DNA of 64,000 nt from an uncultured Acidobacteriota bacterium (GCA_963796275.1 CAWCKY010000006.1:1760001-1824000); one strand, 5' to 3'; shown: positions 25,124 through 28,189, counted from the stretch's first letter. Numbers and translations: made by a program. The notes: generated by a model not told the origin, from the sequence alone.

Positions 25124-26332
25124 TCACTCCACAGCACCTCGCTCTCGCAACAGCATCACAGTTTTCCCCTCACCGCTGGGAAACCGCAGCGCGTATCCCA
25201 ACGGCGTGCATTCGACCACTTCGCCAGGTCGCTCATAAGCGCCAGGAAGTTTCACCCGAATGGAGAGATCCGCGCCGCGTTCCACCAACAATTGCGCCAC
25301 AGGAAATCCATACTCATTGAACTGCGTCGCCGCGTGGAAGATGGGCGTCTGGCCGCCGACGCCGTTTTCATCCACCGTTGCTTTCGCATCGACTTGCCCC
25401 CCGCGATCTAGGAGAAGCCTGGCGGCCTCAAGCTGGCCGTATTCCGCAGCCACGTGCAGCAGCGTCGCTCCTCGCAAGAGGAGAAGGCGATCGCCGGTTT
25501 GGCCGCAGTCGAGCTCAGGGAAACGTCTGTTGACAATGTCGGGGACTGCGTCAATCTGCTCCGACAGTCGATCGATATCGCCGCGAAGCAGTTCCAAGAT
25601 TCCCGGCGCATCGTATTTGGTCTTCCCGCCGGCTTCGAGAATGAGATCGATGCAAGCGGGGAAATGCGATGAGCGTGCGTACCCGCAGATCAGATAATCC
25701 AGCGCCGTCACGCACCCGTAGGCGTTGCCGCAATTCGGATTCGCTCCATGTTCCAACAGCCATTTGAGCGACACTGCGTTTACTGCTTCGCAAGCGGCGA
25801 AGAGGATGGGAAAATTGCCATTCCACTCGGCGTTCACATCCGCGCCGTAAGTCAGGAGTAATTCCATCATCGGAACACGCGTGGCATTGAGCGCCGCGCG
25901 CATGAGTGGCCCATCGCCTCCCTGATGTACATCCGAACCGTTCTCGATCATCCAGCGCGCCATCTCCAATCGCGCGGTGGATGGCGGCCCCCACGGCACG
26001 CGGCATTCGGCGACCCAGGTGAGCGGCCCGTTCTTCCCATAACCTAGCGGAGCGCGGTGCAGCGCCGGATTGCGCGTCATCATCGCTTTGACGCGTGCTA
26101 CATCCTCGGCGTCAATCGCCAGCTTGAGTTGGCCGATTTCCGCTAGCGAATCCACATGCGCTTTCAGCTTCGGCCAACTGGCGAAACCGTACAGCCGGGC
26201 GATTTTGAATTGTGCTTCGGTGAGTGTCGCGGCCTCACCCGCTCTCAGCATGTCCTTGGCTTGATCTTTCAGGTGTCGAAGATTGGGTTGTTCGGGCAGT
26301 AGACGCGGAGTTTCTTCAGAGTTGGTCGGCAT
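25124..26332 (-). CDS. ankyrin repeat protein with small N-terminal helical domain ('LPEQPNLRHLKDQAK...AQFKIARLYGFASWPKL')
   Basis: Ankyrin motifs 'TLLHVAAEYGQLEAARLLLDRG', 'GQTPIFHAA' and 'LLEHGANPN'. Confidence 0.9.
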   Translation of the reverse strand: MPTNSEETPRLLPEQPNLRHLKDQAKDMLRAGEAATLTEAQFKIARLYGFASWPKLKAHVDSLAEIGQLKLAIDAEDVARVKAMMTRNPALHRAPLGYGKNGPLTWVAECRVPWGPPSTARLEMARWMIENGSDVHQGGDGPLMRAALNATRVPMMELLLTYGADVNAEWNGNFPILFAACEAVNAVSLKWLLEHGANPNCGNAYGCVTALDYLICGYARSSHFPACIDLILEAGGKTKYDAPGILELLRGDIDRLSEQIDAVPDIVNRRFPELDCGQTGDRLLLLRGATLLHVAAEYGQLEAARLLLDRGGQVDAKATVDENGVGGQTPIFHAATQFNEYGFPVAQLLVERGADLSIRVKLPGAYERPGEVVECTPLGYALRFPSGEGKTVMLLRERGAVE

Positions 26333-26455
26333 AGCGAAATCCTTTCGTTGAATTGCCCGGTGTCCGCTTTGGCGGGCTGAAAGAATGTTCGCGAAAACTG
26401 ATTGGGAACAGATGAGCTTCTACTCTTTCCGCGGACCGGATGCCTTCTGCGGGCC
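26333..26455 (-). ncRNA. candidate structured cis-regulatory leader RNA of the ankyrin gene
   Basis: Nested complementary segments GCCCG/CGGGC, GUCCGC/GCGGAC, GAAAGAGU/AUUCUUUC and UGUUC/GAACA. It starts just after a TTGTAA-N17-TATTTT promoter (26491-26463). Confidence 0.55.
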
Positions 26456-26766
26456 AGGAGAGAAAATAGTCCTTCCGCGTAGTGATTACAAGGTCGGCCG
26501 CGAATTTTCGCCAAGTCCAAGGAGCCGCATCGCCGCCGCGTTTTTGAGTTCCGCGCGCTTTCGGCACCCGTGCTTCCGCCGCCCGGCTGGTAGACGATCT
26601 CACACGCTATGCCTTGACATTCTAGGCCTCTCTGCCTGCTCTACACGTATAATTTCTAATCAGAGTACTCATTCAAATCGGCAAAGTCGAGCTAAGTGTT
26701 CGCTAGCGTAACATTCGCTGCAAACCGCAGACAATTCGAAATCGATAGCCCAATCACGAAATTGAC

Positions 26767-27072
26767 TTATTCAAAGACTGGCCTGAAAAAACTTCTTTCA
26801 TAGCTCACAATACATTCTGTTTCCTCGGCGTACTTAAAAGCTGCCAGGCACTCTGTATCTGAGAATGATTTGGTTCGATACTGTTCGTAGGCTGCAAGGC
26901 TCGGAAAGGTGAAAAGAGCGAGGGCGATGTTGTTCGCTCCTTCCGAGGGCAAGAAATAACCGTGGTGTTTCCCACCAAACTTCTCTACTAACGGAATCCA
27001 TAGTTTCCCGTAGTGTTCAAATTCTTTCACTTTGGAAGGGGCGATTACGTAACGCAGATAACAGGTGACCAT
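26767..27072 (-). CDS. NIPSNAP family protein (integron cassette-like)
   Basis: 'VTCYLRY...FEHYGKLWIPLVEKFGGKHHGYFLPSEGANNIALALFTFPSLAAYEQYR'. It starts 25 bp after the R' box of an attC site. Confidence 0.88.
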   Translation of the reverse strand: MVTCYLRYVIAPSKVKEFEHYGKLWIPLVEKFGGKHHGYFLPSEGANNIALALFTFPSLAAYEQYRTKSFSDTECLAAFKYAEETECIVSYERSFFRPVFE

Positions 27073-27097
27073 TGCCTTTTCTCAGTTTGAATTTGGA

Positions 27098-27196
27098 GCA
27101 TAACGTCATGCCGCTCAGCCGCGAGCGGCGTTCCCGCATCCATCGAATAGCCCGTGATTCCCGTGCCACTCGTCGGCTGCTGCAGGCATGTTAGGC
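27098..27196 (-). mobile_element. integron attC site (99 bp)
   Basis: Minus strand: R'' GCCTAAC, L'' CAGCCGAC, L' GCGGCTG, R' GTTATGC, forming an imperfect palindrome. Confidence 0.8.
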
Positions 27197-27218
27197 GGTG
27201 ATGTGTTCATTACACAAG

Positions 27219-27580: not shown

Positions 27581-28189
27581 TCATCGCCTGTCACATCGCA
27601 CGCCCGGTTTGACTTCAACGCTCGATTCCTCGGCCTTATGTTCTAGGGAGGCACTCTCCGAATCGCGCGCGATCTGCTTCAACCTGCCGCGCAACTCTCT
27701 TGTCACGCTCGCATGACATCCGAGACATAGGGTTCGGATGTTTTCAATTCCGCATTCACCGCCGCCTTCGACGACAGACACAATATGGTCGGCTGCCCAG
27801 GGGCTAATAAACGGCGTGAACCATGGGAACTGCAGCCGAAACATATCGAGCGCCCCGTAACGCTCCGGCTCGCGCTCCACTTTCCAGGGGAATTGCGTCG
27901 CCTTAAGCCCCGCCTTTCGCAACAACGCCTTAAAGACCCTCATGACCTTATCGCAATCGGTTCCACAAAGCGCGCAGACCCCGAAATCGCGCTGAAAGAC
28001 TTGTTCCCGAAGGTAGCCCGGATCGCTGCGAAGTTTGTGTTCATGGATACAAGCGTAAGAACAAAATGACCGCCGTCCTTTCGGAACCTCGACGCCGCAC
28101 CACCGGCAAAGCGCGCGGCCATTCGCCCCCTGTGTAAGTTCTTTATGATTTTTCCAGCCCGATCCCGGCCGGACTCTGTGTTTGCTCAT
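27581..28189 (-). CDS. HNH endonuclease with N-terminal Zn-finger
   Basis: 'CRWCG...FCSYAC', 'RDFGVCALCG', 'DHIVSVVEGGG...NIRTLCLGCH'. Confidence 0.88.
   Translation of the reverse strand: MSKHRVRPGSGWKNHKELTQGANGRALCRWCGVEVPKGRRSFCSYACIHEHKLRSDPGYLREQVFQRDFGVCALCGTDCDKVMRVFKALLRKAGLKATQFPWKVEREPERYGALDMFRLQFPWFTPFISPWAADHIVSVVEGGGECGIENIRTLCLGCHASVTRELRGRLKQIARDSESASLEHKAEESSVEVKPGVRCDRR

Follow-up and report, generated by a model that had tools for sequence, protein, structure and literature searches.

A leader RNA family with a loop-loop kiss precedes genes whose products start with one three-helix domain in at least five bacterial phyla

Introduction

Among the described systems that come closest to the RNA reported here are the autoregulatory leaders of ribosomal-protein and similar operons, such as the L10, S15 and ThrRS leaders. 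Like these, the present RNA is a structured 5' leader that extends over the ribosome-binding site and shows a strict association with a single protein's gene; unlike these, it displays no evident rRNA or tRNA mimicry, no sequence or Rfam likeness to them was found, and its presumed binder is a small domain fused to Ank, LRR and other parts. Riboswitches provide another point of comparison. SAM-II, preQ1-II and guanidine-III are translational pseudoknot riboswitches in which the Shine-Dalgarno sequence (SD) is part of the aptamer, purine riboswitches feature loop-loop kissing, and a known riboswitch class as a rule governs multiple gene families that belong to one pathway. The present leader shares with the pseudoknot and purine riboswitches a long-range loop contact, burial of the SD in the conserved fold and many invariant unpaired letters, whereas it matches no Rfam model and is associated with a single protein domain rather than with a pathway. 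Lastly, ROSE and fourU are SD-masking RNA thermometers. They resemble this leader in placing the SD within an imperfect helix immediately upstream of the start codon, but the present RNA is far more elaborate (with P0, Pa, P3 and a kiss, see below) and its masking helix is far more stable. Nor is it the simple marginal hairpin in front of heat-shock or virulence genes that typifies such thermometers; its genes encode Ank/LRR proteins.

We analysed a window of 64,000 nt from an uncultured Acidobacteriota bacterium (GCA_963796275.1 CAWCKY010000006.1:1760001-1824000), in which an earlier note, made from the sequence alone, had proposed a structured leader RNA in front of an ankyrin protein gene. 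This leader represents a hitherto undescribed family of cis-acting RNAs, ~110-125 nt in length. The note could not assign it to a class, and the leader indeed belongs to no Rfam 15 family: a search of window positions 25800-27100 with the 4227 models at E <= 10 returned no family, just a 12-nt chance match at the edge, outside the element, and 18 diverse copies of the leader gave 0 matches to Rfam at E <= 1. No paper on the RNA or the domain was found in the searched literature, with subscription journals, unpublished motif collections and bioRxiv supplements lying outside its scope. A term search of the main text of PMC11109978 revealed no mention of ankyrin, leucine-rich, Acidobacteri, Gemmatimon, kissing or Planctomyc, and the passages of PMC3482391 on Imm-ank/Imm-LRR do not mention the domain described below. 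We rate the leader as a new family of a known kind, the structured leader that masks the SD; what is unusual is its coupling to a protein domain.

Results

A conserved block directly upstream of an ankyrin gene

A protein search of 61 related genomes identified full-length orthologues of the ankyrin protein (70-79% identical) in four of them (G004, G011, G036 and G001), and alignment of the orthologous leaders revealed an element of 115 nt (Table 1) with a mean column identity of 89% among the five orthologues, the window's included. The DNA beyond the 5' edge of this block, at 26444, is unalignable among the same five, and full-length covariance model (CM) matches to the element span model positions 1-114. 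The earlier note had let pairing begin exactly at a start site at ~26455; the conserved block starts ~12 nt downstream of that point. Taken alone, the window's leader is not unusually stable, the minimum free energy (MFE) of 26325-26460 (minus strand) being -37.8 kcal/mol and 53 of 200 shuffles folding as well. As the corresponding z-score (-0.64) is no better than chance, the single-sequence fold is uninformative.

Table 1. Positions of the leader, its helices and neighbouring features in the window
Feature	Position	Strand	Remark or basis
Conserved leader element	26330..26444	-	115 nt, 3' end is the ATG (26332-26330); orthologue alignment and CM
P0 stem, U5-A17, C6-G16, C7-G15	26440-26438 with 26430-26428	-	closes the 7-nt loop holding GUCCGC
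5' kissing strand GUCCGC	26436-26431	-	in P0 loop
Hairpin Pa, GAGU (26425-22), loop AGAA, GCUC (26417-14)	26414..26425	-	covariation
Variable linker, contains the UGUUC arm of the earlier note	26393..26413	-	length 15-35 nt in 91 copies
P2 5' strand (anti-Shine-Dalgarno), GCGAA-C-AUUCUUUC	26379..26392	-	pairs with 26346-26334; in window MFE fold
Hairpin P3, GCCCG (26377-73) / CGGGC (26359-55)	26355..26377	-	covariation
3' kissing strand GCGGAC	26362..26367	-	in P3 loop; pairs with GUCCGC
P2 3' strand GAAAGGAUUUCGC, with Shine-Dalgarno core AAGGA (26344-26340)	26334..26346	-	covariation
Gene presumed to be regulated, 402-aa protein with N-terminal three-helix domain and ankyrin repeats	25124..26332	-	ORF, Pfam, AF2 model
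N-terminal three-helix domain, ~aa 10-62	26147-26305	-	AF2 model
Outer GCCCG arm of the earlier note	26450..26454	-	outside element; differs in 4/4 orthologues
Promoter-like hexamers of the earlier note, TTGTAA-N17-TATTTT	26463..26491	-	putative, present in sequence

Compensatory changes define the fold

Two covariance models were used, R1, built from five leaders (the window's and those of the four orthologues), and R2, built from 96 copies. The sequence from G004, an unpublished genome, is contained in alignments A1-A3 and in the R1 seed; it was left out of everything later, R2 included. Pair counts were made on alignment A8, whose 91 copies were all found by covariance models and none by DNA pattern, while a pattern-derived set (A4) was uninformative on the kissing contact because the pattern itself had fixed those letters. 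In A8, 93.5% of 2827 cells pair and double changes occur in 30 of 32 pairs (290 cells, covariation figures being counts of cells and not of independent events). None of 500 shuffles reached the A8 values on any measure and, in a control in which the partner was slid by 1-3 columns, 41-51% of the cells paired. The nested helices were part of the structure of R2 and their paired percentage is somewhat inflated; the kissing pairs and P0 were absent from that structure, so the alignment was not fitted to either.

The pairing of GUCCGC (26436-31) with GCGGAC (26367-62), which the earlier note had listed among its nested helices, is conserved and covaries. It is paired in 99.3% of the cells from the 91 copies, with double changes in five of its six pairs, and variants include GUUCGC/GCGAAC, ACCCGC/GCGGGU, GUCCAC/GUGGAC, GUCUGC/GCAGAC, GCCUGC/GCAGGC and AUCCGC/GCGGAU. 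P0 consists of 2-3 bp, its pair 6-19 being CG in 82 copies, UA in four and AU and GC in one each, and its pair 7-17 CG in 87, UG in two and AU and UA in one each (91 copies). Because P0 closes the loop that holds GUCCGC, the contact is a loop-loop kiss between P0 and P3. A divergent leader from Nonomuraea (L248, 1785-1905, minus strand) has the kiss fully swapped to GACUCG/CGAGUC; the N-terminal domain of its gene scores above the cut-off of PF20066 (a Pfam model discussed below) and the CM gives this leader only 13 bits, which indicates that the RNA family is wider than the models detect.

Hairpin Pa is paired in 100% of the cells and shows double changes in all four of its pairs (91 copies); a compensatory change separates GAGU/GCUC in the window from GGGU/GCCC in orthologues, and the purine-rich AGAAGC that the earlier note had left unpaired corresponds to its loop. 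P3 is paired in 98.4% of cells, with a fourth pair that is C-G in 67 copies and U-A in 20 (GCCUG/CAGGC). The GCCCG at 26377-73, described in the note as a second copy, does pair with CGGGC, as the note had thought possible, but as the true P3 partner rather than as a competitor for it. P2 joins a pyrimidine strand to the SD strand over ~14 bp and stops 1-3 nt before the start codon. Covariation extends to 9/9 of its inner and 5/5 of its outer pairs, its mean energy is -14.8 kcal/mol (both in the 91 copies), and within it AUUCUUUC (26386-79) pairs with the SD strand GAAAGGAU, with a compensatory A-U to C-G change among the orthologues. All 91 copies end at a start-like codon (ATG in 76, GTG in 12, CTG in two and TTG in one), and an SD-like core lies 4-8 nt before it in 86 of them. 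The linker is 15-35 nt long in these copies and has no conserved letters. Of the 113 consensus positions, 35 are at least 90% conserved, and unpaired letters among these are G2, C3, the A that precedes Pa and the ACC that follows it.

G-U cells outnumber A-C cells (175 versus 60 in the 91 copies), which argues that the sense strand is the folded strand. The notion that the conservation reflects a DNA site or an unrecognised coding extension is scarcely credible: an open frame does run 29 codons 5' of the ATG (431 versus 402 aa), but the conservation is not codon-periodic, the helices covary with G-U pairs that are strand-specific, the linker varies in length and all copies end at a start codon with an SD before it. 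The leader is almost certainly a real structured sense-strand RNA, and conservation and covariation in relatives thus bear out the first proposal of the earlier note. Neither of the outcomes that the note had named as speaking against that proposal, a lack of conservation and covariation upstream of homologues or a match to a described Rfam family, was found.

The particular fold drawn in the note, four nested helices from ~26455 with the ribosome-binding site in a CGAAA-GGA-UUUCG hairpin, fared differently. All of its listed helices exist in the window and pair correctly (0 bad pairs), the nested fold amounts to -23.3 kcal/mol versus -22.1 for the nested consensus helices in the window, and it contains the real GUCCGC/GCGGAC contact. 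This contact is the only one of the four helices to be retained. The outer helix GCCCG (26454-50)/CGGGC (26359-55) uses an arm that lies outside the conserved block and differs in 4/4 orthologues, and UGUUC/GAACA falls in the variable linker. In a set of 30 copies, GAAAGAGU/AUUCUUUC is devoid of double changes and 27 of the copies break its last pair; across the 91 copies the duplex averages -6.3 versus -5.9 kcal/mol for shuffles, with a median of 43% of shuffles doing as well family-wide. Having no double changes and being no better than shuffles, this helix was also rejected, as a family feature, for the role of a conserved alternative state. Compensatory changes back instead the competing pairs of Pa, P2 and P3, and we consider it highly improbable that the nested fold is the working structure. 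In the window itself the GAAAGAGU/AUUCUUUC duplex reaches -7.8 versus -4.4 for shuffles, 7% of which do as well, and it may be an open conformer specific to the window.

No conserved alternative (ON) pairing by which the gene might be switched on was found, either in a pair check on 30 copies or by comparison of duplex energies with shuffles in 91 copies, and P2 is stable on its own. A ligand-free structure, be it an RNA thermometer or a constitutive brake that holds translation low, would fit this absence of a conserved alternative fold and the masking of the SD by a bulged helix that contains G-U pairs. However, the kiss, the second hairpin and the invariant unpaired letters across phyla exceed the needs of a simple SD-masking hairpin, a P2 of ~-15 kcal/mol would hardly melt at growth temperatures and the controlled genes are not heat-shock genes. 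We deem a ligand-free role very unlikely. Similarly, comparison of the leader with the first 420 nt of the coding sequence uncovered no conserved pairing, a single 5-bp candidate among all column pairs being taken as chance, and the coupling between the RNA and the encoded domain described below is therefore not mediated by an RNA helix.

Region upstream of the leader

The earlier note had derived its start site from a promoter, TTGTAA-N17-TATTTT. These hexamers are present at 26491-26463, but a sigma-70 scan of 25900-27200 listed no promoter, this one included. By eye, similar hexamers at the same spacing are seen in two of the four orthologues (TTGTCA-N17-TATTGT in G011 and TTGTAA-N17-TATCGT in G036), while the other two have a TGGTAAGAT-like -10 instead. 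Since promoter-like hexamers recur in orthologues, a transcription start ~10-17 nt before the element is plausible. Short contigs from soil RNA libraries overlap the leader, such as X2 (151 nt, 26340-26490), which differs from the window at one position and crosses the proposed start site, and X17 (159 nt, 26290-26445), which stems from a relative and has six differences. Contigs of this origin reveal neither strandedness nor transcript ends and may derive from residual DNA; likewise, gaps in their coverage and the lack of one spanning the gene carry no information. X17 ends at 26445, level with the 5' edge of the conserved block, an agreement too thin to call a transcript end. Further upstream on the same strand lie a 101-aa NIPSNAP-family ORF (26767-27072, minus strand) and a 202-aa ORF with an HNH endonuclease motif (27581-28189, minus strand), and no link of either to the leader was seen.

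The leader recurs in at least five phyla

Searching the 87 genomes of the window's family with R1 yielded 36 full-length matches in 21 genomes. A second copy resides in the window's own genome (C7:400253-400376), directly 5' of the sole other gene there with the same N-terminal domain; DNA similarity revealed no leader paralogues in this genome, the C7 copy being detected by CM only. A DNA pattern of the most conserved letters occurs at no fewer than 120 places (at least 120) in a collection of species-representative genomes, and R1 confirmed 79 of the 80 loci examined out of these. Phyla named among the pattern loci are Acidobacteriota, Actinomycetota, Planctomycetota, Gemmatimonadota, Chloroflexota, Armatimonadota, Eremiobacterota and others. 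Verrucomicrobiota was rejected as a carrier phylum and left uncounted: a metagenomic locus (L096, MAG) matched the DNA pattern, but the CM found nothing there.

When even samples of 151 genomes per phylum were searched with R2, the element was found in 13 Acidobacteriota, seven Actinomycetota, nine Planctomycetota and 37 Gemmatimonadota, counts that are lower bounds owing to strict filters. In a plasmid collection, four of the six proteobacterial genes that start with the domain are preceded by a strong R2 match ending exactly at the annotated start codon; these four carriers are on plasmids of Methylosinus, Azospirillum, Burkholderia and Variovorax. By model search, the element is therefore present in at least five phyla, Acidobacteriota, Gemmatimonadota, Planctomycetota, Actinomycetota and Proteobacteria.

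Two Rhizobiales plasmid genes annotated 'VOC family protein' (L254, 354-506, and L255, 348-500) also start with the domain and have weak partial CM matches (9.2 and 6.5 bits). Their upstream regions share a different motif, GUAGGG...GAGCCG...GGGCA..GCCCGCCUACA, which may be a sister RNA.

RNA and N-terminal domain are linked in both directions

The earlier note had proposed that similar leaders precede other genes beginning LP..PNL..LK.QAK...IAR.YGF.SW, which relatives confirm: 29 of 30 family copies precede an ORF opening LP.RP.LEQL.KQAK...AQ..IAR.YGF.SW. Using block HMMs, which were built from the same set and serve as a presence test only, we detected the domain within 560 nt downstream of CM rows in 107 of 110 cases for the first block and in 103 of 110 for the last. 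The rows without the first block are L090, where 24 nt of downstream DNA are left, L030 and L099; those with the first block and no last block are four truncated genes. The ORF of L045, cut to 22 aa, still opens with the domain motif. No intact copy among the 110 precedes a gene that does not start with the domain.

Conversely, a profile search with A5 and reading of the resulting table identified 35 genes that start with the domain in the 87 genomes of the window's family, and the RNA lies upstream of 34 of them (32 by the R1 search and two more with filters off). The remaining gene lies 27 nt from where its contig stops. Next to copies of the domain that are internal or C-terminal, no RNA was found. 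The C-terminal parts of the downstream proteins vary (Ank, LRR, DUF1835-annotated, VOC and other) whereas the N-terminal domain is constant, and the coupling is thus to this small helical domain and not to the ankyrin part, as the note had suggested. The element and the genes that open with this three-helix domain are tied to each other in both directions, a strict co-occurrence of the RNA with the gene of its presumed binder. If the RNA were merely inherited together with the first, exon-like portion of the gene, an equally strict link could arise in the absence of physical contact.

Decayed copies were seen as well. One (L030, G002:C284:3185-3298) is a leader that has neither start codon nor gene, and others stand before genes cut by stops or frameshifts (L035 in G008:C26, L045 in G001:C155, L065, L076 and L086).

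These gene contexts bear on the possibility that the RNA is a riboswitch, in which a small molecule or ion would bind in a pocket made by the P0/P3 kissing fold and Pa, thereby locking P2 and stopping translation, and the proteins with the N-terminal domain would act in the biology of that ligand. With no Rfam match, the leader would then be an orphan riboswitch class. The covarying, aptamer-like 5' UTR fold (30/32 pairs with double changes), the many conserved letters (35/113 positions at >=90%, unpaired ones among them), a core kept across phyla and an SD within the conserved fold, as in pseudoknot riboswitches, are all in line with this proposal. However, the absence of any intact copy before other genes among the 110, and the nature of the controlled proteins, which are repeat scaffolds (Ank, LRR) and not enzymes or transporters, speak against it; the downstream proteins share the N-terminal domain only rather than one metabolic or transport theme, and no tandem copies were seen. 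A riboswitch is possible, if somewhat doubtful.

The N-terminal domain

The window's protein scores 80.7 bits with the Pfam model Ank_2 (cut-off 27.3), four other Ank models also exceed their cut-offs, and the repeats lie in the second half of the 402-aa protein. AlphaFold2 applied to 58 sequences of the N-terminal domain predicts helices at positions 18-31, 37-47 and 53-74 with a mean pLDDT of 77. The domain is mildly basic, with a mean net charge of +3.5 and K/R at positions 22, 26, 46 and 55 in 86-100% of members.

No Pfam model scores above its cut-off for this domain. Its nearest listed relatives are PF20066 (Glyoxalase_8) and NF004629 ('DNA helicase'), of which the first ~55 profile positions align with it: among 58 members, 23 match the N-terminal part of PF20066 at E <= 1 (best 2.9e-5) and 28 match that of NF004629 (best 7.8e-7). 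The window's protein reaches 14.3 bits with PF20066 (cut-off 23.7; profile positions 4-56 of 143 matched) and 20.2 bits with NF004629 (cut-off 156); it lacks the glyoxalase and helicase bodies of these families and carries ankyrin repeats instead. A PDB profile search returned nothing below E 0.06, Foldseek against PDB nothing at E <= 0.001 and the ESM Atlas nothing usable, and the domain is thus without detectable likeness to a known RNA-binding fold. The domain family is unnamed and large, with at least 7952 members: that many of the 8000 candidates scored reach E <= 1e-5, most of them annotated as 'hypothetical'. Most genes downstream of the leader open with proline-rich strings in the first 10-20 codons, for instance ALPLPPRPNLEQYKK (L029, L057 and L068).

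Copies of the domain away from the N-terminus are found after an ECF-sigma-like region (L186, L188) and at the C-terminus of long Ank proteins (L189, L190, L191). Its occurrence inside ECF-sigma fusions and at Ank C-termini fits a protein-protein module as well as an RNA binder. Two relatives share a layout that looks syntenic (L249, G029:C1:1132000-1151900, and L250, G030:C4:655000-672000): 9-12 kb separate an LRR gene from an Ank gene for a 441-aa protein, each of them preceded by the RNA, with an ECF sigma gene in between. In G029 the ECF sigma is fused to ankyrin repeats (883 aa), while in G030 it is separate and the Ank protein after the sigma gene ends with a further copy of the domain.

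Discussion

P2 hides the SD in the conserved state, so the element should limit translation initiation, and it is likely that this is the step on which it acts: the folded RNA would hold the ribosome off the start site and thereby set translation of the gene. As to what reads the fold, we tentatively favour autogenous repression by the N-terminal domain of the encoded protein over a small-molecule riboswitch, since this domain is the sole constant partner across phyla and architectures. Moreover, the RNA is present only when the domain is translated first, which would allow binding in cis, and the domain may thus act on the very mRNA from which it has just emerged. That the N-terminal domain is itself the effector is a fair guess and should be read as tentative.

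Alternatively, another trans-acting factor might read the leader, such as a small RNA, some other RNA-binding protein or a component of the ECF-sigma/ankyrin systems that neighbour such genes in relatives. The location of RNA-led LRR and Ank genes within 9-12 kb of an ECF sigma gene in two relatives would accord with the latter, but the window's gene has no such neighbour (the ORFs upstream are those with NIPSNAP and HNH motifs), and the phyla that carry the RNA differ widely in their regulators, whereas the N-terminal domain is the one constant partner observed. We regard such a factor as unlikely.

In its most far-reaching form, autoregulation by the N-terminal domain would make the leader and the first ~70 codons one portable regulatory cassette. 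The three-helix domain, on leaving the ribosome, would clamp the kissing-loop fold of its own mRNA and block further initiation, such that each clamped message would give rise to few protein molecules, and, across many phyla of soil bacteria, the cassette would have been pasted before bodies of the Ank, LRR, VOC, kinase-like and other types. A self-limiting cassette of this sort, with the domain as a new RNA-binding fold, is a rather unlikely proposition at present.

The leader adds a large, phylum-spanning class of structured RNA that is absent from Rfam and from the searched papers. Its covariation support is on par with that of validated riboswitches, and its gene association is unusual in that it involves one small N-terminal domain and not a pathway. 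Should the domain bind the RNA, a modular autoregulatory cassette would be defined along with a new RNA-binding fold; should a metabolite bind, the leader would represent a new class of orphan riboswitch, one that Gemmatimonadota and Acidobacteriota commonly carry. In both cases it provides a first entry point to the thousands of Ank/LRR proteins from soil bacteria that are now called 'hypothetical'.
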